Part shown: positions 6,901 to 51,772 of the stretch, piece by piece | How positions within the stretch are numbered: position 1 is the stretch's first letter | Layout: each line of letters opens with the position of its first letter | Source: an uncultured Gammaproteobacteria bacterium | GTDB lineage: Bacteria > Patescibacteriota > Microgenomatia > Levybacterales > UBA12049 | NCBI GenBank assembly: GCA_964637955.1 | Contig: CAZWXQ010000002.1 | Coordinates: forward strand, 135,782 to 199,781 | Length of the DNA stretch: 64,000 bases | Direction of reading: 5' to 3' | Program-made: the position numbers and the translations under genes | Notes under the pieces: generated by a model | The model's input: the letters and a program-made list of their open reading frames with translations, nothing else | Databases searched by the model: none | What the model was told of the DNA's origin: nothing

Positions 6901-6935
6901 ATGGAATATAAAACGAAGACTGATTTAATTCTTCC
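6901..6935 (+). repeat. Direct repeat copy 1 (35 bp, the first 35 bp of the M23 gene). Copy 2 is at 8491-8525 with 2 mismatches.
   Basis: ATGGA(A/T)TATAAAACGAAGACTGATTTAATTCT(T/C)CC appears at both positions. Confidence 0.9.
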
Positions 6936-7479: not shown

Positions 7480-7551
7480 CCCATGATATATTTAGCCTCG
7501 TAAATAAGCTTATAGTTTGACTTAAATTCATATTTTAGGTATAATTCTGAC

Positions 7552-8472
7552 ATGACTAGTGAACAAATTCCGGAAAATAATTTTCGTGAGATGGTTTTGA
7601 GAGGTAGAACACCTGCTGAATACATCGAACAAACGCTTGCTGAGGAAGAGAGTTTTAATCGTGAGCTTCGACCTGAATTGCCTTCATTTACGGCCTGGGA
7701 TAAAGCAGGGTTTATTCTTGGACTTGTAGAGAGGGGAATTATCGAAGAAAATGATATCGCATCAGTCGTACCTGGAATTGGTTTATCTGAACATGAAGTA
7801 GAGCATTTTTTAGATCAGATAATTCCAGAAGCAAAAGAGGCAATTGAACAAGACAGAAAGCTGCATGAAATGGAAGCAGCAAAACAAAGAGTTGAGCTTG
7901 CAGAAGCCTTCTCCAGAAGCTGGGGAGTAGATAGAATCTCTGCATTTGCTGATATAGGTTTATTAAATATAGACGCAATTAGAGCTCTAGATCCATCTTG
8001 GGCGAATGCACTTGAGAGATTCCCAGAATATAAGCCTGAACTTGAAAGAATAATAGCAGGGATAGAAGATCCAGAGGCCAAAGCTATGGCATTAATGAGA
8101 AATTTATTTTATGTAAGTAATCTTCATCCGTCAGAAACCATGGAAATTTTTAGGACTGAACAGAAAACCGGAACTTATGTATATCAAGATAGTTTATTTA
8201 GAGCTTCATATGTTTTACACCAGCTTAAAACTGAAAGAGATCCAGATTTTAGTGTAATTAAATTTGGAGGAGGTGGAATGATGATTTCTATGAATTTTAC
8301 TAGTGTGGATGACCCGGAATCAATGAAAAGAAAAGATAGAAAAGATAGATTAAGTTTGTTGCAATTTGGAGCTGTAACTCCTTTTGAGGTAACCAGTCCT
8401 GATAAAAATGTTTTTCAACCAGGACTCGCTAGTCAAATAAATCAATTTACTATTTTGCCTTCAGAAAGTTAA
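7552..8472 (+). CDS. Hypothetical protein (306 aa)
   Basis: ORF; consensus-like promoter (TTGACT...TATAAT) at about 7515-7545. Confidence 0.5.
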   Translation: MTSEQIPENNFREMVLRGRTPAEYIEQTLAEEESFNRELRPELPSFTAWDKAGFILGLVERGIIEENDIASVVPGIGLSEHEVEHFLDQIIPEAKEAIEQDRKLHEMEAAKQRVELAEAFSRSWGVDRISAFADIGLLNIDAIRALDPSWANALERFPEYKPELERIIAGIEDPEAKAMALMRNLFYVSNLHPSETMEIFRTEQKTGTYVYQDSLFRASYVLHQLKTERDPDFSVIKFGGGGMMISMNFTSVDDPESMKRKDRKDRLSLLQFGAVTPFEVTSPDKNVFQPGLASQINQFTILPSES

Positions 8473-8490
8473 CTTCTTATATTTAGCCAC

Positions 8491-8525
8491 ATGGATTATA
8501 AAACGAAGACTGATTTAATTCTCCC
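8491..8525 (+). repeat. Direct repeat copy 2. A relic 5' fragment of the M23 gene (MDYKTKTDLILP then a stop after 16 codons).
   Basis: 33/35 identity to 6901-6935. Confidence 0.9.
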
Positions 8526-20768: not shown

Positions 20769-20945
20769 TAATTAAAGTATACATCTTTTTCATCACTTAA
20801 TTACAATTTATCCCAAATCCTATAGTTAAGTAAGTTATTTTAAATTTGTGCTATAATTCTTTGGTTTTTAATATTGAACGTCTATTTTGCTGACGTTTCT
20901 TAATGTTAAAAACAAGCACATTAAAATTTAACAGGAAATTTAGTT

Positions 20946-20997
20946 TAGACACGGATTTTCAGGTATTGAGAATTCGATATTTGAAAGGCCGTGTCTA
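20946..20997. repeat. Inverted repeat TAGACACGG...(34 nt)...CCGTGTCTA at the left edge of the GC-rich island
   Basis: 9-bp perfect arms seen in sequence. Confidence 0.8.
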
Positions 20998-21026
20998 AAA
21001 TAACACAGCAAGTGGAGAAATTGGCG

Positions 21027-21215
21027 ATGCCAATGTCAGTAATTCCACCGTCGTGGACGAAGCGCCCCAGCGATTACGGTGATTCATCTTACGAAGAGGT
21101 GGTAGGCTACGACGAAAGTCGTTTCTGGGGACTCAACGTGTCTCTAGGTACAGTTGTCAAGGTAGCGTTCGCGGTCATCATCGCGCTCGTGCTTCTGGCA
21201 ACCTCAGGAACCTAG
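21027..21215 (+). CDS. Small protein A (62 aa) with C-terminal transmembrane helix (VVKVAFAVIIALVLLATSG)
   Basis: SD-like GGAGAAA upstream; high GC3. Confidence 0.45.
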   Translation: MPMSVIPPSWTKRPSDYGDSSYEEVVGYDESRFWGLNVSLGTVVKVAFAVIIALVLLATSGT

Positions 21216-21241
21216 TTCGAGAAGAACGGAGAGGAGAGATC

Positions 21242-21436
21242 ATGGACGAGAGAGACTTGGTTCAGGAAGCCAGAGCGAATAACTCTGACAACAGCTTCAC
21301 GAGTTCATCGCCTTGGGTGGCGCTTCTCGTGATGCTCGCGATCCTGATCATGCTCTACGGGGCATACTACTTCTTTTTTGGAGATCCAGAGCAGATCGAC
21401 GGGATCATTCGCTCGATTGCAGAGCAGATCAACTAA
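21242..21436 (+). CDS. Small membrane protein B (64 aa; PWVALLVMLAILIMLYGAYYFFF)
   Basis: Strong SD GGAGAGGAG 6 nt upstream; high GC3. Confidence 0.55.
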   Translation: MDERDLVQEARANNSDNSFTSSSPWVALLVMLAILIMLYGAYYFFFGDPEQIDGIIRSIAEQIN

Positions 21437-21447
21437 GGAGGTTCGAG

Positions 21448-21684
21448 ATGCGACAGTATTGGTCCAAGATCGAGGACGAAGAGGGCGAGGTGTACAATGC
21501 CTCCCATCTGCTCCTGGAAGTGCTCGGGTCGATCGTGGCGATCATCGTCACCTTCGTGTTCATCATGCCCGGTTGGGTGTGGAACGCCGCTCTCGAGCCT
21601 GTGCTCAAGGGAGTTCGGCTCATCCAGGCTGACATCTACGAGGGTCGCAATCAAGCGAGTCTCGAGTCAGAGAACGGTTCCTGA
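21448..21684 (+). CDS. Small membrane protein C (78 aa; LGSIVAIIVTFVFIMPGWVW)
   Basis: AAGGAGG SD 7 nt upstream; GC3 about 80%. Confidence 0.55.
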   Translation: MRQYWSKIEDEEGEVYNASHLLLEVLGSIVAIIVTFVFIMPGWVWNAALEPVLKGVRLIQADIYEGRNQASLESENGS

Positions 21685-21727
21685 TCGTCAGGAAGCAGCC
21701 GGCCAAAAGCCGAGAAAGGGCAGTCAA

Positions 21728-21832
21728 ATGTTCAAGACCGGGTTCAAGTGGCTCGTGGCAATCACCGCAGTGGTGACCTCCATCGGAGTCGCAGTCGCGA
21801 CCTGGTACGAGAAGCATGGTTACAAGAGGTAA
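21728..21832 (+). CDS. Small membrane peptide D (34 aa; FKWLVAITAVVTSIGVAVATW)
   Basis: GAAAGGG upstream; in tandem with C and E. Confidence 0.4.
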   Translation: MFKTGFKWLVAITAVVTSIGVAVATWYEKHGYKR

Positions 21833-21834
21833 TC

Positions 21835-21972
21835 ATGAACCGAACTGTTTGTTCGCGCGCTTCGCCCTTGTTGGTGATATTCCTGTTTAATGGAGCCTGC
21901 GGAAGGAAGCTTCTGTCAATCATCTGGCCGATGGCGGTTGGAATGGTATGCAGAAATTGCAGATCTCCGTAG
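21835..21972 (+). CDS. Small Cys-containing hydrophobic peptide E (45 aa)
   Basis: AGAGG SD. Starts 3 nt after the stop of D. Confidence 0.35.
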   Translation: MNRTVCSRASPLLVIFLFNGACGRKLLSIIWPMAVGMVCRNCRSP

Positions 21973-22165
21973 CAGGGGAACAAGGGATACATTGCGGTGT
22001 CTGTAGTGTTGGTTTTTACCAACGCACACGCGATATTTCGCACCCACTTTCTTCTTTTGTTCCTATTTCTAAGTTATTAAATTGTATTGATAATTTAGGA
22101 ATAAATACTATGAATAATTATCCGTTGTTTCTAGCCACGATGTATGTTAAAATTAGATTCACAAT

Positions 22166-25065: not shown

Positions 25066-26202
25066 ATGAAGAGATTACTTCTTATTGCAGCCATTTTAAT
25101 ATTTCTATTAGGTGGATTATATTTTTTATCTGAGAAGTTTTCTTTTAGTATTGCTCCAAAAAATACTACTGAAAATGTAATTAATAATGAAAAAGTAAAA
25201 GTTCTTACTGAAGAATCAGTAGTAACTAATGCCGTAGAAAAAGTGGGACCAAGCGTAGTTACTATAGTAGAAACTTTTCCTCAGGGCTCAAAGGTTTCGC
25301 AAGAAAATAATCCATTCTCAATTTTTGGTTTCGACCAGGCACCTGAACAAAGCAATGAGCCTCAAAGTATAGGATCTGGATTCGTAGTTAGTAATGATGG
25401 CTTGATAGTTACAAATAAGCATGTGGTTTCAGATACAGGAGTTAAGTACTCGATTCTAACCAGCAGTGATAAAAAGTATGAAGTAGAAAAAATTTATAAA
25501 GATCCTTTAAACGATGTTGCCATCCTTAAGGTAAATACAACTGAACTAAAGCCAGTCACTCTTGGGAATTCAGATAATCTAAAAGTAGGGCAGTTCGTAA
25601 TAGCTATTGGTTCAGCTCTTGGAGAATTTAGAAATTCTGTGACGACAGGAGTAATTTCAGGCCTGGGACGAGGAATTACAGCAGGAAGTCAGTTTCAAGG
25701 ATTTGCAGAAAAACTTGATAATGTTATTCAAACAGATGCAGCTATAAATCCAGGAAATTCAGGAGGGCCGCTTCTAAATTCTTCCTCACAAGTAATCGGA
25801 GTAAATACAGCGGTTTCTGCTGAAGGTCAAAACATAGGATTTGCACTTCCAATAAATGTTATTAAGCAGTCTCTTGATAATTTTAATAAAACCGGACAGT
25901 TTAACCGTCCATTTATAGGAGTTTCTTATGTGATTCTTACGCCTGATGTAGCTTCGGTAAATGAGTTAGTAGCCGGAGCATATATTGATACTGTTGTGCC
26001 TGGTTCTCCTGCAGAAAAAGCAGGTCTTGAAAAAGGCGATATAATAGTTACGGTTAACGGAAAGAAGATTGAGAAAGATAAATTTGAACTTTCTCACGCA
26101 ATATCAGAGAATAAGATAGGGGATGAGATAATACTTAAAGTTTGGCGCGATGGGAAGGTTCAGGACATCAAAGTCACTTTAGGAGAAACGCCTCAAGAAT
26201 AA
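25066..26202 (+). CDS. htrA: HtrA/DegP-family trypsin-like serine protease with PDZ domain
   Basis: GSGFVVS...TNKHVV, D...AILKV, GNSGGPLLN catalytic triad context. C-terminal PDZ (AGLEKGDIIVTVNGKKI). Confidence 0.8.
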   Translation: MKRLLLIAAILIFLLGGLYFLSEKFSFSIAPKNTTENVINNEKVKVLTEESVVTNAVEKVGPSVVTIVETFPQGSKVSQENNPFSIFGFDQAPEQSNEPQSIGSGFVVSNDGLIVTNKHVVSDTGVKYSILTSSDKKYEVEKIYKDPLNDVAILKVNTTELKPVTLGNSDNLKVGQFVIAIGSALGEFRNSVTTGVISGLGRGITAGSQFQGFAEKLDNVIQTDAAINPGNSGGPLLNSSSQVIGVNTAVSAEGQNIGFALPINVIKQSLDNFNKTGQFNRPFIGVSYVILTPDVASVNELVAGAYIDTVVPGSPAEKAGLEKGDIIVTVNGKKIEKDKFELSHAISENKIGDEIILKVWRDGKVQDIKVTLGETPQE

Positions 26203-26204
26203 TG

Positions 26205-27140
26205 TTACTTCAAAAAAACGTATTGCTTAAAGATTATTGTAATTATCAGATCGGTGGCCCTGCAGAATACTTTTATGAATTCAAGTCAGTTGTTGATCTT
26301 ATTGAATGTCTTGGTGAATACGCAGAAATTAATCCTGAATTAAAAAATATTTTTATTCTAGGAAGCGGAACGAATATATTATTTAGCGATAAAGGTTATA
26401 GAGGCTTAGTGTTAAAAAATTCATTGATGGGAATAGAAAGAGAAGATTTGATTTTGGAAGCGGCGTCTGGAATTTTATTTGACGAATTAATCAACTATGC
26501 GATCTTAAAGCATATGTCAGGTCTCGAATGGGCTGGAGGACTTCCAGGAACAGTTGGAGGTGCTGTGAGAGGTAATGCTGGGGCATATGGCGGTGAGACA
26601 AAAGATACATTAGTTGAAGTAAAAAGTATAAATATTAAAACATTTGAAATAAAAACGAGAACTAATGCCGAATGTAATTTTACATACAGGCAAAGTATTT
26701 TTAAAAGAGGGGAAGGGGAAGATGAAATTATCTTGTCAGCTAAATTTAAATTTGAATATTCTGACATGGATACTATCAAAGCAAATACCCAGAAAAATAT
26801 AGATCATAGAATAGATAGGCACCCACTAGAATATCCTAATGTTGGAAGTATTTTTAAAAACGTACCTGTGGAAAAAGTTTCACCTCAAGTTCTAGAAGAA
26901 TTCGCGGCAAATATAAAATTTGATCCATTTCGTGTGTTGCCGGTAGCCAAACTTATTGTCTCATGTGGTCTTGTAGGGAAGCAAATAGGAGGAGCCCAAA
27001 TTTCCACGAAGCATCCAAACTTCATAGTGAATCTAGGAAATTCTTCATCTCAAGACGTTTTAGATCTCATAGATTTAGTAAAGAAAGAAGTGAAGAAAAA
27101 ATTTGAAATAGATCTCGAAGAAGAAGTAATGATCGTATAA
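26205..27140 (+). CDS. murB: UDP-N-acetylenolpyruvoylglucosamine reductase
   Basis: NYQIGGPAEYF...ILGSGTNILFSDKGYRGLVL FAD-binding signature. ATG at 26205 right after the htrA stop is preferred over the 26142 overlap. Confidence 0.75.
   Translation, partial: LLQKNVLLKDYCNYQIGGPAEYFYEFKSVVDLIECLGEYAEINPELKNIFILGSGTNILFSDKGYRGLVLKNSLMGIEREDLILEAASGILFDELINYAILKHMSGLEWAGGLPGTVGGAVRGNAGAYGGETKDTLVEVKSINIKTFEIKTRTNAECNFTYRQSIFKRGEGEDEIILSAKFKFEYSDMDTIKANTQKNIDHRIDRHPLEYPNVGSIFKNVPVEKVSPQVLEEFAANIKFDPFRVLPVAKLIVSCGLVGKQIGGAQISTKHPNFIVNLGNSSSQDVLDLIDLVKKEVKKKFEIDLEEEVMIV
27097..27140 (+). repeat. Direct repeat R1 copy 1 (the last 44 bp of murB). Copy 2 is at 27748-27791 (41/44).
   Basis: AAAAAATTTGAAATAGATCT(C/T)GAAGAAGAAGTAATGAT(C/T)GTATA(A/G) appears twice. 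Confidence 0.9.
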
Positions 27141-27171
27141 AATAGCCTCGTTTTTGCTATAATCTTTTGCT

Positions 27172-27699
27172 ATGAGTGAATTAATTGGCTCACGTCCAGA
27201 AGGAATAAGCTTTTACAAGCCTGGAGACGAGATTACGCTTTTTGGGGGAGATTTAAAAAATAATAGATCATTTGTAAGCGAGAATGTTCACGTGGGGGAT
27301 TTAGGCATAGCATGGCTTATTGGAAACGAAATTGAAGATGTTAATTTTAAAGATTTTGCTCAAGGATTTTTGCCTGACGGAAATGAACCACAAATTAGAC
27401 TCATAAGAGATTTTGAGCAGGTAGGCATATATCAGTTGTTACTTTTCCTAGATAGAATTCCTGATAATATGCATATTGAGTCTTTAGTAGTGCTACCAAA
27501 TGGCAAATGGTGTGAAGCACATGTTTCTCAACCGCTCCCCCCTACGCTTCCTGGCAATTTTAATGTATATAACGCTTGGGGAGTAGATGATCAAGGAAAA
27601 CCTCTTTATCTCTTGGCACGTCCAGATACAGATTTATTAAGCCAATATAAATTTTCGTTTAAAATGAGATTAGAATCGAGCCAAGGACTAACAGCTTAA
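27172..27699 (+). CDS. Hypothetical protein (175 aa) bracketed by R1 copies
   Basis: ORF; TATAAT promoter-like box at about 27150. Confidence 0.5.
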   Translation: MSELIGSRPEGISFYKPGDEITLFGGDLKNNRSFVSENVHVGDLGIAWLIGNEIEDVNFKDFAQGFLPDGNEPQIRLIRDFEQVGIYQLLLFLDRIPDNMHIESLVVLPNGKWCEAHVSQPLPPTLPGNFNVYNAWGVDDQGKPLYLLARPDTDLLSQYKFSFKMRLESSQGLTA

Positions 27700-27719
27700 A
27701 AAAACGAGTCTACTGGAAG

Positions 27720-27744
27720 ACTTGATACTTCATTTTAAATCCCA
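27720..27744 (+). repeat. Direct repeat R2 copy 1 (25 bp ACTTGATACTTCATTTTAAATCCCA). Copy 2 is at 28336-28360, perfect.
   Basis: Seen in sequence. Confidence 0.9.
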
Positions 27745-27747
27745 ATA

Positions 27748-27791
27748 AAAAAATTTGAAATAGATCTTGAAGAAGAAGTAATGATTGTATA
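27748..27791 (+). repeat. R1 copy 2 (relic murB 3' end encoding KFEIDLEEEVMIV*)
   Basis: Sequence identity to 27097-27140. Confidence 0.9.
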
Positions 27792-27828
27792 GTGTTATTT
27801 ATTCAAAATTTCCCCTAAACTTTAGAGG

Positions 27829-28287
27829 TTAGATTTTCTCTGCAAATACTAAATACAAAAATATTAGAAATGCAATAATAACAAAGATAAATGAACTGCT
27901 AATTACACTAAATTCACTAATTATTACTCCTCTTTCTCTAGTTTTTTGAATTTGACGATTCGAAATTAATCCACTTATAAATGAAAGTAGTGGGCAAATA
28001 AATATAAATAAAATAAATGCAGCTAAATAGAGAGGTGTTCCGTCTAAAATAAATGGAAAATGAATACGAATAAAGTTTATATTAAATGCATAAATACATA
28101 TATATATAATATAAATTAAAGACATCAGAAGCATAATCCCTGAAAAAATAGATAACTTATTCCATTTGGGATTTTTTTCAGGTGCTATTTCTAGAACAGG
28201 AGTCTGAATAAGTTCATTTTGATCTGCTTGAGAAATGGAAGGGGGAAGTGCAGCTTCTGGTATTTGAGTAATTTCTTGCATATACAT
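27829..28287 (-). CDS. Hypothetical integral membrane protein (152 aa, about 3 TM) bracketed by R2 copies
   Basis: Hydrophobic stretches; ORF. Confidence 0.5.
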   Translation of the reverse strand: MYMQEITQIPEAALPPSISQADQNELIQTPVLEIAPEKNPKWNKLSIFSGIMLLMSLIYIIYICIYAFNINFIRIHFPFILDGTPLYLAAFILFIFICPLLSFISGLISNRQIQKTRERGVIISEFSVISSSFIFVIIAFLIFLYLVFAEKI

Positions 28288-28335
28288 TTATACTGATAAG
28301 TTCTCTTAACATTGTCAATAAACAGTCATATTATA

Positions 28336-28360
28336 CTTGATACTTCATTTTAAATCCCAC
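28336..28360 (+). repeat. R2 copy 2
   Basis: Perfect 25-bp match to 27720-27744. Confidence 0.9.
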
Positions 28361-28371
28361 ATACTAAATAT

Positions 28372-30051
28372 ATGGAGGGGTTTTTCTTTCAAATAGCCAT
28401 AGTTATAGTCGTAGCTGCGACGCTTTCAATTGTTTTTCGTTTTCTTAAGCAGCCCTCCATCTTAGCTTTCATCATCACTGGAATTATCGTAGGTCCGCTT
28501 GGACCCTTTGGATTTACTGATGAGGAATTTCTTAAGTCACTAGCTTCTATTGGAATTACACTTCTTCTTTTCATGATTGGGCTTGAATTAAACGTAAAAG
28601 AACTTAAGCACGTGGGGAAGAATGCTCTGGTTGCGGGTGGGCTTCAAATGTTTATGACTACTATTGCTGGGGCAGGGGTGGGGATTCTTCTTGGATATAA
28701 TGCTGTTATTTCGCTTTATGTTGGTCTTGCTCTAGCATTTTCTTCCACGATTCTTATTATAAAACTCTTTTCAGATAAGAGAGATCTGAAAAGTCTTTAT
28801 GGAAAACTTACAGTCGGAATTCTAATTATTCAGGACATAATTGCAATTTTTGTTCTAATAATTCTTTCCACTTTTAATGCGTCACATGGATCATTTGATT
28901 TCCTAAGTCTCATAATTGCTGGACTTAAAATATTTATTTTATTTGGTAGCGTATATTTACTCAGCCGTGAAGTTCTACCCAAGTTTTTAAATAAAATTTC
29001 GCGCTCTTCAGAATCTCTATTTTTATTTAGTCTTGCTTGGGTTTTTGGAATAGCAGCATTAGTTTCGTCTCCTCTCATCGGATTTTCAATAGAGATAGGT
29101 GGACTTCTTGCAGGAATAGCACTTTCTAGCACTATTGAGAGTTTTCAGATTACTACAAAGATAAAACCTTTACGAGATTTTTTCTTGACTATATTTTTTG
29201 TAACTCTTGGAACAGAATTAACATTTAATAATTTCTCAAGCACCATTATTCCTACGATTACACTTTCTCTCTTTGTTCTAGTAATTTCACCGATAATAAT
29301 TCTTCTTATTTTGGGATTATTAAAATACAAAAAAAGAACTTCATTTTTTTCTGCAATATCCCTTGCACAAGTTTCTGAATTCTCATTAATAATGGTTTTT
29401 CTCGGGCATTCTATTGGGCACGTATCCAGCGAGGTTGTCTCTGTTATTACTTTGGTTGGGGTAATCTGCTTTGTCGTTTCGACTTATTACATAACTTACA
29501 GCAATCAGATCTATAAAATTTTTATGCCATTTTTGGGAATTTTTGAGCGTAAAAGCGCAAAAGAAGAAGTGTCCGCTGAAGAAATTAAAGACCATATAAT
29601 CTTGGTGGGTGCAAATAGGATGGGGGAGGGAATCTTGGTTGCATTAAAGAAAAAAGATGAAAAAGTAATTGTGGTAGATTTTGATCCAGAGATTATAGAA
29701 AAAATAAAGAAAGATTCTGATGGAGAGGTAGAGACTTTCTTTGGTGACATCTCAGATCCCGAGATTCAAGAAGCTGTAAATATCAGTAAGGCAAGTTTAA
29801 TCATTTCTACTGTTTCAGATCCTGAGGATGTATTCATTCTTCTTAAGCATGTTAAAAAAATAAAAGGTCTTAGGGTGATCGTTGCGGCATTTGAGAAAAG
29901 TGATGCCAGAGAGTTTTATAAAGAGGGAGCAGACTATGTTATTATGCCGCACGTCGCAGGAGGAAATCATTTAGCAAATATACTTATTGAGAAAAATCAT
30001 TTGAAATTAATAGAAGAGTATAAAGAAAAGGAAAAGTCTTATTATTCTTAG
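28372..30051 (+). CDS. CPA2-family monovalent cation/H+ antiporter (Kef-type) with C-terminal TrkA-N/RCK domain
   Basis: About 12 TM N-terminal region. HIILVGANRMGEGILVAL...VIVVDFDPE Rossmann RCK motif. Confidence 0.75.
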   Translation: MEGFFFQIAIVIVVAATLSIVFRFLKQPSILAFIITGIIVGPLGPFGFTDEEFLKSLASIGITLLLFMIGLELNVKELKHVGKNALVAGGLQMFMTTIAGAGVGILLGYNAVISLYVGLALAFSSTILIIKLFSDKRDLKSLYGKLTVGILIIQDIIAIFVLIILSTFNASHGSFDFLSLIIAGLKIFILFGSVYLLSREVLPKFLNKISRSSESLFLFSLAWVFGIAALVSSPLIGFSIEIGGLLAGIALSSTIESFQITTKIKPLRDFFLTIFFVTLGTELTFNNFSSTIIPTITLSLFVLVISPIIILLILGLLKYKKRTSFFSAISLAQVSEFSLIMVFLGHSIGHVSSEVVSVITLVGVICFVVSTYYITYSNQIYKIFMPFLGIFERKSAKEEVSAEEIKDHIILVGANRMGEGILVALKKKDEKVIVVDFDPEIIEKIKKDSDGEVETFFGDISDPEIQEAVNISKASLIISTVSDPEDVFILLKHVKKIKGLRVIVAAFEKSDAREFYKEGADYVIMPHVAGGNHLANILIEKNHLKLIEEYKEKEKSYYS

Positions 30052-30128: not shown

Positions 30129-30812
30129 ATGAGTTTTATAGAGCAAGAACGCGGACTAGTTAATGAAATTCCTAAACCTTTTCCCACGATAACTTATATT
30201 GGACTTCCTTCATTGAGTACATACTTTGAAGAATTGGTAAATCCGACATTGCCTCAAATGCAAGCATGCTCGTTAATTAGAGCTAATGGTATTCAAGTGG
30301 CTGATCCTGATAATACCCATAAAGTAATTGAAAAGAGTGATATTGACGGAGCTGATAAATGGACGGAAGGTGCAGTGAACTGTTCAATTTCAGCATTGGT
30401 CGGGCAAAATCCTGAAGGTAATTCAGTATCTGTATTAACTCACATGTCTCCAGGAGTTTTTGACTATAGATATGCTCCAAGCGAAAGTGCAAGAAGAGCA
30501 TACATTCGATTAATTGATAAATTTGCTCAAAGAACTGTAGGAGATCGATATGCCTTTATTTTTGGGGGAACGGATGAGAGGATGCGTGCATTAGATGGAT
30601 TCATAACAACCTCAAATAGAGCTGCAAAAATTCACCAAAAGCGTTTAGATATACCTACATTAGTACAAAAACCCGCTTGGAAAGATGATACTACACCAAC
30701 AAATGTTTTTATTTCTACTAAAGATAGGGCAATTTATCTCATTGAAATAGGAGGAAGTAGAGATATATATACTGTTCACCCTTCAAGATTATGGAGTTTG
30801 CCTGAGTATTAA
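30129..30812 (+). CDS. Hypothetical protein (227 aa)
   Basis: ORF only. Confidence 0.45.
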   Translation: MSFIEQERGLVNEIPKPFPTITYIGLPSLSTYFEELVNPTLPQMQACSLIRANGIQVADPDNTHKVIEKSDIDGADKWTEGAVNCSISALVGQNPEGNSVSVLTHMSPGVFDYRYAPSESARRAYIRLIDKFAQRTVGDRYAFIFGGTDERMRALDGFITTSNRAAKIHQKRLDIPTLVQKPAWKDDTTPTNVFISTKDRAIYLIEIGGSRDIYTVHPSRLWSLPEY

Positions 30813-30837
30813 GGGAAAAGTTTTGTAGAATTAAACA

Positions 30838-31752
30838 TTATTTTTCTTGTTCAATTGATTCTAAAGCTTGGGTAGTTTCATTTAAAACATCATCAATTTC
30901 TCCATCCATAATTTTTTCTAAGTTATGCCATGACTTATTTACTCTATGATCTGTAAGTCTATCTTGAGGGAAATTATAAGTTCTGATTTTTTCATTTCTC
31001 ATACCGCGACCAACTTGAGTGGATTTTATAGAGCTTAATTCACTATGTTGTTTTTCAACTTCAATTTCCCAAAGTTGAGCACGAAGTAAATTCATAGCAA
31101 TTTCCCTGTTTTGGCCTTGGAATCTTTCTGTTGATGCAGTTACCACGATTCCTGAGGGTATGTGTTTAATTCTGACTGCAGTTGAAACTTTATTTACATT
31201 TTGTCCTCCGTGTCCACCAGATCTATATGCTTCAAACTCTATGTCTGCTGGGTTGATATGTAAATCTATATCCTCAAGTTCAGGGAGTATTGAGATAGTG
31301 GCTGTTGAAGTATGAACTCTTCCTCTTTTTTCAGTCGTAGGAATTCTCTGAACTCTGTGAACGCCTGCTTCGTATTTGAATAAATTAAATAGACCTTTAC
31401 CTTGGTAGCTTCCTGACATTCTAAAAACGCCATCGTCTACTTGTTCAACTTTTATCCCAACTCTTTCAGCAAATCGTGAGTACATTCTAAGCAACTCGTC
31501 TCCCCAAAGTTTTGCTTCTTCACCACCTGCTGCGCCTGAGGATTGAAGTATTACATTTCTCTCGTCCAGTGAGTCACCATCCTCGATATCATTTGAGTTT
31601 TCAAAATTTCCCATGATTTGATCTTTTTGGCGATTTAATTCATTCAGTTCTTCTTGCGCCATTTCACTAAAATCAGGATCCTGCAATAGATGCGTAGTGT
31701 CTTTTATTTTTGCATCAATAGCCTCTATAAGTGCTTTTCTGTAATCATCCAT
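30838..31752 (-). CDS. prfA: Peptide chain release factor 1 (short N-terminus)
   Basis: [12 protein letters not shown] (PxT motif, RF1-type), [14 protein letters not shown] motif, [14 protein letters not shown]. Confidence 0.8.
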
Positions 31753-32197: not shown

Positions 32198-33175
32198 TTA
32201 TTGTGTTAACGTAGGCAAAGGACTTGGAATAATTATTCGATCAGAACCAGATAAATAACTTGCTTGTCCTGTTAATAAAATTCTGTCAACTTTAGAAGCA
32301 ATTTTTGTTATTTCTGGTCCAGCTCCATCAAGGGGTACAGGAATTGAAAATCCTTCGTTTTTTATTCTCTGTGTCTCATCTTTTCTTTTTAATTTAGCTT
32401 GCCAGGATTCATATCGATCTGGTCTTCTAGGGGTAATTGGATTTGCAAAAACAAAGGGAGAAAGTGATTCTCCCGATTCATCGACCATAAACCCAATTGT
32501 ATATCCATTTAATTCATGAGTATTAGGTTCAGGATTTTCAACGGAATCAATGATTCTTCTTACAGTATCGCTATCACTAGCTTTAGGATGATACATAATT
32601 GCTACAACACCACGATCTGCAAGAATCACTCTTGCTCCATCTGAATGTTCTGAAGAGCTAAGTCTAATTCGATCTTTATTATTTCTCCTTGTGACTTGAG
32701 TGAGATTTGTTTCAATTAATCCTGGAAATGTTTTTTTCGTAGAGCGATCAGTGCTCGCAGTTTTAAGAATTGCGCCCAATCTGCTTAAAGCAGGAGAACT
32801 AGATCCTTCAAGGGAGGTTAAGGTAGGTTCTAAGGCTGTCATAGCTTCTTGCTCAAATGCTTTGCGAACTCTTCTTTCTTGAGCTGTTTGCTGTTTATGT
32901 CTTCGAGCATTTAGTACATCCTGCGTAGCTGCAATTTGATGATCGATGCGTCTAACTGCTTCTTGTATTCTGTACCCAGCATTTCTTAATGGTTCAAGTC
33001 GAGCATCGATTGCTTCTCGTTCCTGTTCTAATGGGCGAATTGCGAGTTGAAGGCTTGCAAGGTCTTCAAGAAAACCATCGCGGCTTGCCTGATTTGCTGC
33101 GAGTTGTCTAACTAAATCTCTTTTCGGCAATGTTTCAAGTCCAGGCTTTGGTCTTTGATCGCTATCTATTCTCAT
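32198..33175 (-). CDS. Hypothetical protein (325 aa), N-terminal coiled-coil-like, locally higher GC
   Basis: ORF only. Confidence 0.45.
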
Positions 33176-40826: not shown

Positions 40827-41174
40827 ATGGACAATACAAATAACGGTACCAATCCAGCACCAGCTGATCCAGCAGGAGCACCAGCTCCAGTAGCTGATCC
40901 ATCAGCAGGTGGTTCATTAGGTTGGACTCCGCCGACACCAGAACCAGCAGCGCCTATCGCAGAACCAGCTGCACCAGTAGCAGATCCAGCAGGAGCACCA
41001 GCAGGTGGAGTACCAGCACCAGAGCCAACAAATAGTTGGACACCTGAGCCATCAACACCACCACAGCCAGCTGATCCAGTTGCACCTGCAGCTGACCCAG
41101 CAGTGGGAGGAGAAGCTCCTGCGCCAGCAGCGCCTGTTGATAGTGGAACTGGAACAGGTCAACCTGCAGCTTAA
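40827..41174 (+). CDS. Pro/Ala-rich low-complexity (disordered) protein with repeated (A)DPAGAPA and WTP(E)P motifs
   Basis: GAGGGGGTGA SD. Codon third positions are A/T-rich (native usage) despite the high local GC. Confidence 0.5.
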   Translation: MDNTNNGTNPAPADPAGAPAPVADPSAGGSLGWTPPTPEPAAPIAEPAAPVADPAGAPAGGVPAPEPTNSWTPEPSTPPQPADPVAPAADPAVGGEAPAPAAPVDSGTGTGQPAA

Positions 41175-50485: not shown

Positions 50486-50976
50486 GTATGTATTTAGCTT
50501 CATTTAGCCTCAAATATAGGGAGTAAAGGAGTGTACTTAAGAGTCAATCAAGAGATGTTAACTATATATTTATTTTTTTAGCCTCAAAAAATTATTTAAT
50601 TAGCTTCGATTTGTGCGTAAAGAAAATTTATACGATGTTGCTAAAGGGAAGAGGAGAGAGGGCATTGAGGCTAGATGATATAGTTTGATACATAATATAA
50701 ACTATAGGATGATATAGTTTGATATAGTCATAAAATTATTATAGGATATTATAGGATATAATTTAGCTTCAAATGTTCATTTTCACGAGATTTTATGCAC
50801 TATTTTCACAACCATACTGAGGTACATAGGGCTTCTTTCATGTAGGTGAATAAATCAATGATTAGCTTCTGCATTCGGAAATTATTGCGATATGATCATA
50901 TTATAAGGAAACGACATCCTCCTCTGGATTACTTATTGAGTCTAATTCTAAATCGAACAAAATACGAACGTTCTAA

Positions 50977-51345: not shown

Positions 51346-51772
51346 AATTACCTGTTTTACTTATGCTAAAAATTTATACCCCTTCCCTACTATAGGTTTG
51401 TAATATATTGAAAATTCGAGGCTAAATGAAGCTAGGTTTTAATTACTATCGCACTCATCCAGCCTTGAAAGAGAGGTTATTTTATATTTACACGATGATA
51501 TTCGAATCTATATCTACAAGAGGGGTGAATGCTCTCGAGACATTAAATTGATGTTATTTAACACGCGTTCTGAAAACATCATTATAACTTTGTTGATTTA
51601 TTACCGAAATTCGGTAATAAGAGATACTACTGGTAAATTTGATTAGTTAAAACGTCTATTTGTACGTCAGTTTTAAAATAACGCGTCTAGGGCCGTTCTA
51701 GGGGCTCTTAGCCTCGAAGATTGGTAAATCTAGCCTCGAATTGGTTCCTATGGTATACTGAAATACTTAATT

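Follow-up and report, generated by a model that had tools for sequence, protein, structure and literature searches.

How can the conserved end of one gene and the promoter of the next come to be present twice in the interval between them, around two unrelated genes? The question is raised by a locus in a 64,000-nucleotide (nt) stretch of DNA (hereafter the window; CAZWXQ010000002.1 of GCA_964637955.1, positions 135,782–199,781; 35% G+C), which comes from a metagenome assembly of an uncultured Patescibacteria-like bacterium. Here murB and a kef-type antiporter gene are separated by two small genes, which we call gene A and gene B, and by the second copies of two direct repeats, R1 and R2. As we show below, R1 and R2 are the conserved flanks of a slot whose content differs from strain to strain. 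We favour, with a probability of roughly 0.58, the reading that the locus is a recombination scar in which host recombination has fused two alternative alleles of this slot.

Two head-to-tail units between murB and kef

The locus reads murB–R1a–(gene A)–R2a–ATA–R1b–(gene B, minus strand)–R2b–kef, that is, two head-to-tail units of the form R1–X–R2. A preliminary description of this DNA had called the repeats nested; they are instead interleaved (R1a, R2a, R1b, R2b), with the copies spaced by 652 base pairs (bp) for R1 and 615 bp for R2, and R2a adjoins R1b with only ATA in between. The features of the locus are as follows (protein lengths in amino acids, aa):

26202–27140, plus strand: murB, encoding UDP-N-acetylmuramate dehydrogenase, 312 aa; ATG at 26202, full length
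27096–27140, plus strand: R1a, the final 14 codons and TAA stop of the functional murB
27143–27155, plus strand: left arm, TAGCCTCGTTTTT, of an imperfect 13-nt inverted repeat beside gene A (weak evidence)
27155–27163, plus strand: putative extended −10 promoter of gene A, TGCTATAAT, read from the sequence, 8 nt upstream of the ATG
27172–27699, plus strand: gene A, 175 aa, soluble
27700–27712, plus strand: right arm of the inverted repeat, AAAAACGAGTCTA, 12/13 complementary to the left arm
27705–27724: 7-bp hairpin 3′ of gene A
27720–27744, plus strand: R2a, a copy of the opening 25 nt of the kef promoter (−35 box TTGATA and 17-nt spacer) without the −10 box
27745–27747: ATA, the tail-to-head joint between R2a and R1b and the one novel junction of the locus
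27748–27792, plus strand: R1b, a non-coding relic of the murB 3′ end, (I)KKFEIDLEEEVMIV, with a TAG stop
27808–27826, minus strand: terminator-like hairpin of gene B, CCUCUAAAGUUUAGGGG, with a U-rich run after it (fold of the minus strand; the centroid structure contains it)
27829–28287, minus strand: gene B, 152 aa, with three hydrophobic segments in the hydropathy profile
28335–28359, plus strand: R2b, the −35 box and spacer of the functional kef promoter
28372–30051, plus strand: kef, encoding a kef-type CPA2 cation/proton antiporter with a TrkA-N domain, 559 aa

MurB was identified through NCBIfam NF010480 (261 bits, cutoff 259), TIGR00179 and the Pfam domains MurB_C and FAD_binding_4, and Kef through Pfam Na_H_Exchanger and TrkA_N and the NCBIfam CPA2 family. 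Alignment of the repeat copies gave 42/44 identical positions for R1 (27096–27139 against 27748–27791), or 41/44 when the third base of the stop codon is included (27097–27140 against 27749–27792), and 25/25 for R2 (27720–27744 against 28335–28359). The preliminary description had reported the recurrence of the last 44 bp of murB at 41/44 and a perfect 25-bp repeat; both are real, with the second copy of each lying one position away from where it had been placed. Its further observations, namely that the R1 relic still codes for the MurB end followed by a stop and that the repeats accompany a 175-aa gene and a 152-aa gene on the opposite strand, were borne out as well. Neither repeat pattern, with up to three mismatches allowed, occurred in 100 dinucleotide-preserving shuffles of the window, and no third copy of R1 or R2 was found in the window or in viral contigs. 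In a whole-window scan, R1, R2 and a further pair, R3 (described below), were the three longest local direct repeats, and the longest exact run within any repeat pair was 25 nt.

As the source is a metagenome assembly and the locus resembles two concatenated haplotypes, it might be suspected of being a chimera of coexisting strains, one with gene A and the other with gene B. Logan contigs from two separate runs (SRR14271332, 8.4 kilobases (kb); SRR14271336, 17 kb), produced by another assembler, are unbranched through the locus and 100% identical to the window across it. Logan assembly uses k = 31. Since no exact repeat in the locus exceeds 25 nt, which is shorter than this k, and since a bubble formed by two strains offers no path from R2 back to R1, the k-mers of the R2a–R1b joint must have been present in the reads. 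We therefore regard an assembly chimera as very improbable.

The repeats coincide with conserved sequence on both sides of the interval. R1 corresponds to the near-invariant C-terminus of MurB (...FEIDLEEEVMIV), and R2 to the upstream part of the kef promoter, which reads TTGATA, 17 nt, CATACT (28360–28365), 6 nt, ATG. A promoter scan calls the R2b site and makes no call at R2a; TATAAT-like boxes located 6–8 nt before the start codon are found in many genes of the window. In four related lineages (L119, L120, L123 and L126, introduced below), conservation of the kef promoter starts at ACTTGAT, which is the left edge of R2. Since R1 is the conserved end of MurB, and since the left edge of R2 marks the limit of conservation in all relatives, the inner edges of the two repeats are the borders of a variable slot; where the repeats end on the outside was determined by one joint, at 27744/27745–27748. 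This joint (CCCA/ATA/AAAAAATTTG) is abrupt, and the order R2 followed by R1 is seen in no relative.

The three differences between R1a and R1b are all synonymous transitions (CTC/CTT, ATC/ATT and TAA/TAG). Under neutral decay of a relic, synonymous differences only would be expected with p ~0.005, or ~0.03 when only transitions are counted. The pattern thus fits two copies that once ended working murB genes in slightly diverged strains, and R1b is indeed collinear with a real murB end in L126. R1b has kept the lineage-specific KKF codons, and both parents would therefore have been close relatives.

As for the two genes between the repeats, open frames of 152 and 175 codons arise by chance at a rate of ~1e-5 to 1e-6 per frame at 35% G+C. 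Neither gene A nor gene B matched Pfam, NCBIfam, PHROG or PADLOC, and a word-indexed homologue search with both returned only the queries themselves. Among 1.8 billion cluster representatives, gene A has one remote homologue, P0003 (~31–33% identity over the full length, E 9e-14), located between unrelated genes on a 1.4-kb Logan contig (L118). From the −10 box through the short leader to the sixth codon (MSELIG; 27153–27189 against L118:187–223), the two genes agree at 33 of 37 nt, and this 5′ end is far more conserved than the remainder of the gene, the proteins being ~31% identical. Because the −10 box lies only 8 nt before the ATG, the transcript of gene A is probably leaderless. An AlphaFold2 model of gene A from a two-sequence alignment had a pLDDT of 34 and was unusable. 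The inverted repeat around gene A reached p ~0.001 in shuffles, yet one of 26 other genes, used as controls, scores as high. That gene B might be an ORFan was ruled out by direct comparison, which revealed a homologue in L126 (143 aa, 42% identity, E 1e-23) that the word-indexed search had missed; it occupies the same slot in the same orientation, without repeats. We also considered CCCCTAAACTTTAGAGG (27808–27826) as the relic of a slot promoter and rejected it after folding, since it is the terminator hairpin of gene B.

The murB–kef slot in related lineages

Usable relatives were obtained solely from a MurB homologue search of a large protein collection, with identities of 61–86%, and from exact-protein look-ups. 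GTDB species genomes and JGI metagenome contigs, searched with the MurB query, contained no relative above 50% identity and none with shared synteny. The contigs of seven related lineages have a common order, S41 protease, HtrA, murB, slot, kef, release factor and L31, and their slots are occupied as follows (percentages are MurB identities to the window sequence):

L119, 86%: plus-strand gene of 220 aa
L120, 80%: plus-strand helix-turn-helix gene of 264 aa
L121/L122, 78%: plus-strand gene of more than 237 aa
L123, 70%: slot empty, 57 nt (murB stop, 20 nt, ACTTGCTACTT..., kef)
L124/L125, 65%: slot empty, 9 nt
L126, 65%: minus-strand gene of 143 aa, the homologue of gene B
L127, 61%: slot empty, 46 nt

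The slot is empty in three of the seven relatives, holds different plus-strand genes in three others and a homologue of gene B in one. In BLASTP comparisons the plus-strand occupants show no relationship among themselves or with genes A and B; with the window included, eight lineages contain five mutually unrelated occupants and three empty sites. The preliminary description had suggested looking for genomes in which murB directly precedes kef, and such empty sites are present in L123, whose Kef protein is 82% identical to that of the window, in L124/L125 and in L127. In L126 the murB end, the spacer, the gene B terminator region, gene B itself and the intergenic region between gene B and kef are collinear with R1b–B–R2b–kef of the window. 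Gene B occurs in the window and in this distant lineage and is absent from closer relatives. Alleles with a plus-strand gene and alleles with gene B thus exist separately.

No repeats of the murB end or of R2 were found in any relative, and candidate degenerate relics of the murB end, at the right-hand junctions in L119 and L120, did not reach significance (p 0.03–0.33). The murB–kef interval is thus a slot that varies between strains, with the murB stop codon as its left border and ACTTGAT, the start of the kef promoter, as its right border. Among the 22 proteins scanned around the locus (18.6–37.4 kb), three of which have no Pfam match at all, none showed a domain of an integrase, transposase or recombinase, in agreement with the preliminary description, which had noted no adjacent integrase.

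Origin of the tandem arrangement

Because both allele classes exist separately in relatives, a single additive recombination is the most economical way to arrive at the window locus. The lineage comprises at least two classes of allele: in one, murB and kef enclose a plus-strand gene that has a promoter of its own, and in the other they enclose gene B on the minus strand. The window genome carries one of each class, joined head to tail. The added segment of one allele would begin 44–47 nt ahead of the murB stop and end 12 nt short of the kef ATG; it would have been placed beside the other allele rather than replacing it, and would have carried 25 nt of the right flank along. Such an event would need only one new junction (R2a/ATA/R1b, 27744–27748), and both conserved flanks would be duplicated automatically. 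We think that host recombination acted here without a dedicated recombinase, and two routes may be envisaged. Incoming DNA may have been anchored at one end in murB or kef and attached by an illegitimate joint at the other, as in homology-facilitated illegitimate recombination; or a copy of the slot, closed into a circle, may have entered through a single crossover (Campbell-type integration). The single step, the division of the alleles into donor and recipient and the enzymology are what we infer.

Several points weigh against such a fusion. We found no genome of the same species with the parental single-cassette gene A allele, against which donor, recipient and any microhomology at the joint could be judged. 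R2 is identical at 25/25 positions while R1 differs at 3/44, which is slightly uneven for the flanks of one donor, though the promoter is a conserved sequence and few positions are compared. In homology-facilitated illegitimate recombination, recipient DNA is as a rule replaced, and a net duplication needs an illegitimate joint inside the homologous region. Finally, the 13-nt inverted repeat around gene A could hint at a different entry route for this gene.

One alternative to the fusion of two alleles is a local tandem duplication of one R1–X–R2 unit by illegitimate recombination, after which the content of one or both copies was replaced or deleted. Tandem duplication is the commonest bacterial rearrangement; it yields exactly the tail-to-head joint that we observe, and the slot is demonstrably prone to changes of content. 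The units of a simple tandem duplication should, however, be homologous throughout, whereas those of the window match only at their 44-nt and 25-nt ends, and between flanks that are 95–100% identical they hold two unrelated genes, A and B, in opposite orientation. At least two extra events would be required, the replacement of one copy would have to rely on a 25-nt arm (R2a), and, with both allele classes found separately in relatives, fusion in one step is more economical. We consider duplication followed by replacement unlikely. Site-specific, att-like integration would instead involve a small element with gene A or gene B, a tyrosine or serine recombinase encoded elsewhere, and R1 (or R2) as attL and attR, the murB end being restored upon insertion. 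Direct repeats that include the intact 3′ end of a target gene, together with an empty site in relatives, are the classic footprint of such a process, and the perfect 25-mer of R2 resembles an att core. Yet the edges of the repeats are ordinary edges of conservation rather than those of a core site, there is no dyad symmetry or hairpin, and no further copies exist in the window or in viral contigs. The scan of the 22 neighbours, three of them without a Pfam match, uncovered no recombinase domain, the element would need to have brought along part of the other flank (R2a or R1b) as cargo, and the single slot genes of relatives are not bordered by such repeats. All this makes att-like integration improbable. 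The preliminary description had seen in the repeats the footprint of sequential site-specific (att-like) or homology-mediated cassette insertions at a gene end; the variable gene-end site and the homology-mediated mode are retained in our reading, while sequential att-like insertion is not, as the repeats are conserved flanks without core or hairpin structure and the 22 neighbours scanned include no recombinase.

A third way to duplicate the murB end is insertion at a staggered break with fill-in, which would turn its 44–47 nt into a long target-site duplication. The insert would consist of the gene A promoter, gene A and R2a, and would derive from the murB–A–kef locus of another strain. A 227-aa gene located between kef and the release-factor gene is apparently flanked by a ~38-nt duplication of the kef end (shuffle p ~0.004), and an M23 peptidase gene is followed, 1.6 kb downstream, by a relic of its own 5′ end. 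The window thus has more than one case of a flank duplicated over tens of nucleotides. The score of the kef-end relic, however, is barely above that of the best of 16 control gene-end pairs, and to our knowledge there is no bacterial mechanism that generates 40-nt target-site duplications. Moreover, R1a and R1b would have been identical at the start, so that their three synonymous-only differences would demand a further explanation. We accord insertion at a staggered break a low probability.

A more far-reaching possibility, which we regard as doubtful, is an integrase-free exchange of cassettes in which recombination would use conserved gene ends and promoter stubs as handles that travel with the cassette. 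If this were true, a 0.6-kb circle would be looped out by host recombination, taken up by a neighbour and re-enter by a single crossover, and the tandem would be a captured intermediate. The flank duplications at three loci within 64 kb (murB/gene A, kef/227-aa gene and M23 peptidase/306-aa gene) would in that case be the outcome of a regular process and not accidental.

Whichever allele was added in the fusion that we favour, RecA-type recombination would be expected to remove the gene A unit (652 bp) if it acted on the two R1 copies, and R1b with gene B (615 bp) if it acted on the two R2 copies; either deletion would restore a single-cassette allele. This predicts low-frequency variants with gene A only or gene B only, and circles of 652 or 615 bp. 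Over eight lineages the slot is found in three states, empty, singly filled and doubly filled, and the doubly filled state, with both parental flanks preserved, would be rare direct evidence of additive recombination as opposed to replacement. The locus thus offers a view, at the level of base pairs, of the turnover of gene content in a small uncultured Patescibacteria-like genome without mobile-element machinery nearby.

Other features of the window and comparison with known systems

Two further loci in the window carry, or seem to carry, relics of gene ends. The 227-aa gene (30129–30812) between kef and the release-factor gene is absent in relatives, and the two flanking genes abut or overlap in L119, L120, L124, L126 and L127. 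The kef 3′ end (~30014–30051, ~38 nt) is seemingly duplicated past the 227-aa gene (~30804–30851; p ~0.004 in shuffles), the best of 16 control gene-end pairs scoring nearly as high. R3 consists of the first 32 nt of the M23 peptidase gene, ATGGAATATAAAACGAAGACTGATTTAATTCT (6901–6932), which recur at 31/32 identity 1590 nt downstream (8491–8522), after a 306-aa gene (7552–8472), as a dead 16-codon stub, MDYKTKTDLILPIKII-stop. The 11-mer TATATTTAGCC is located past the M23 stop (7487–7497) and again directly before the relic (8479–8489). This second gene-end relic of the window is nested rather than interleaved, and apart from the 11-mer no significant relic of the M23 gene 3′ end was detected after the 306-aa gene.

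A promoter-like module of the form CCTATAGTT(T), 20–21 nt, TATAAT, 6–8 nt, ATG is present at 7509, 20816 and 30086 in the window and at L118:161, L119:8957, L120:8955, L121:1910, L124:855 and L126:117. It precedes the 306-aa gene, the 227-aa gene, the slot genes of three relatives and the homologue of gene A; its CCTATAG part is not found in other promoters of the window. The module is possibly a distinct promoter class or regulon. The idea that CCTATAGTTT-N20/21-TATAAT marks mobile cassettes was discarded, since in the window, L124 and L126 the module also stands before a conserved non-coding region that lies upstream of rpsF; it is therefore one of the lineage's promoter types and not a cassette mark. 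The region in question (20769–22160) spans ~1.4 kb without a convincing open reading frame (ORF), between a minus-strand gene and rpsF-ssb-rpsR. It begins just past the promoter module, contains a hairpin with an 11-bp stem (20938–21007) and is conserved with L120 (73–81% identity) and partly with L119 and L126. No Rfam family matched it above chance, and the sole match in an Rfam scan of the whole window was a tRNA-Leu. The region may encode a non-coding RNA that has yet to be described, or form a long leader.

The rpmE (L31)–EamA transporter gap (32198–33175) is another variable slot, with a 325-aa gene without a Pfam match in the window, an 86-aa gene in L119 (12674–12934), a 237-aa gene in L126 (9457–10170) and no gene in L120, L124 and L127. 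The motifs TTAGCYTC and TAGCCTC cluster in gene-poor intergenic stretches (50486–50976 and 51346–51772), within which a perfect 17-nt repeat, GATGATATAGTTTGATA, also lies (50674 and 50708). Window-wide they are present in 18 and 14 copies, respectively, against 6.5 and 5.9 expected, counts that were not reached in shuffles; the motif is also located right past the stops of murB (27143) and the M23 gene (7493). Lastly, a 115-aa ORF (40827–41174) contains a short-period imperfect repeat of Pro/Ala-type codons (CAGCACCAGC..., 40855–41113).

The murB–kef locus reveals no new class of element; it is not an integron, not an integrase-borne island and not a simple tandem duplication. Similar to integron cassettes, it has small single-gene units in series at one site near a conserved promoter region. 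Integrons differ in that they depend on intI, which is missing from the 22 proteins scanned, and on attC hairpins: single-stranded folds of 27695–27830 and 28285–28375, on both strands, were no better than shuffles (z-scores 0.1–0.6). Furthermore, integron cassettes are mostly promoterless and co-oriented, whereas gene A would have an extended −10 promoter of its own and gene B lies on the opposite strand with its own terminator hairpin. With integrase-mediated elements at gene 3′ ends the locus shares a direct repeat of the last 44 nt that brackets a gene, an intact murB and an empty site in relatives. It differs from them in having no integrase in the units or among the neighbours scanned and no core or arm sites, its repeats are ordinary conserved sequence, and the ‘element’ would carry a fragment of the opposite flank.

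Homology-facilitated illegitimate recombination would resemble the locus in combining one homologous with one abrupt junction, in needing no dedicated recombinase and in placing foreign DNA beside a conserved anchor. A number of transformable bacteria are documented to carry it out, 1e-2 to 1e-3 times as often as homologous transformation, and the joints show 3–10 bp of microhomology (PMC6382021). In contrast to the documented events, most of which replace recipient DNA, the window shows a net duplication of both flanks.

The minimal mobile elements of Neisseria, reportedly the subject of work by Saunders and Snyder in 2002, resemble the slot in their variable content between conserved flanks, and no mobility genes were found among the proteins scanned around the slot either. 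Such elements have no terminal repeats, whereas the murB–kef locus has duplicated flanks and a weak 13-nt inverted repeat. In the account given in PMC3787668, varied and often uncharacterised genes lie between the same conserved flanking genes without mobility genes, and their exchange is attributed to homologous recombination in the flanks (PMC3787668). The organism of the window is, by contrast, an uncultured Patescibacteria-like bacterium. Each strain with a minimal mobile element carries one alternative between single flanks; the window carries two in tandem, with 44- and 25-nt copies of the flanks duplicated.

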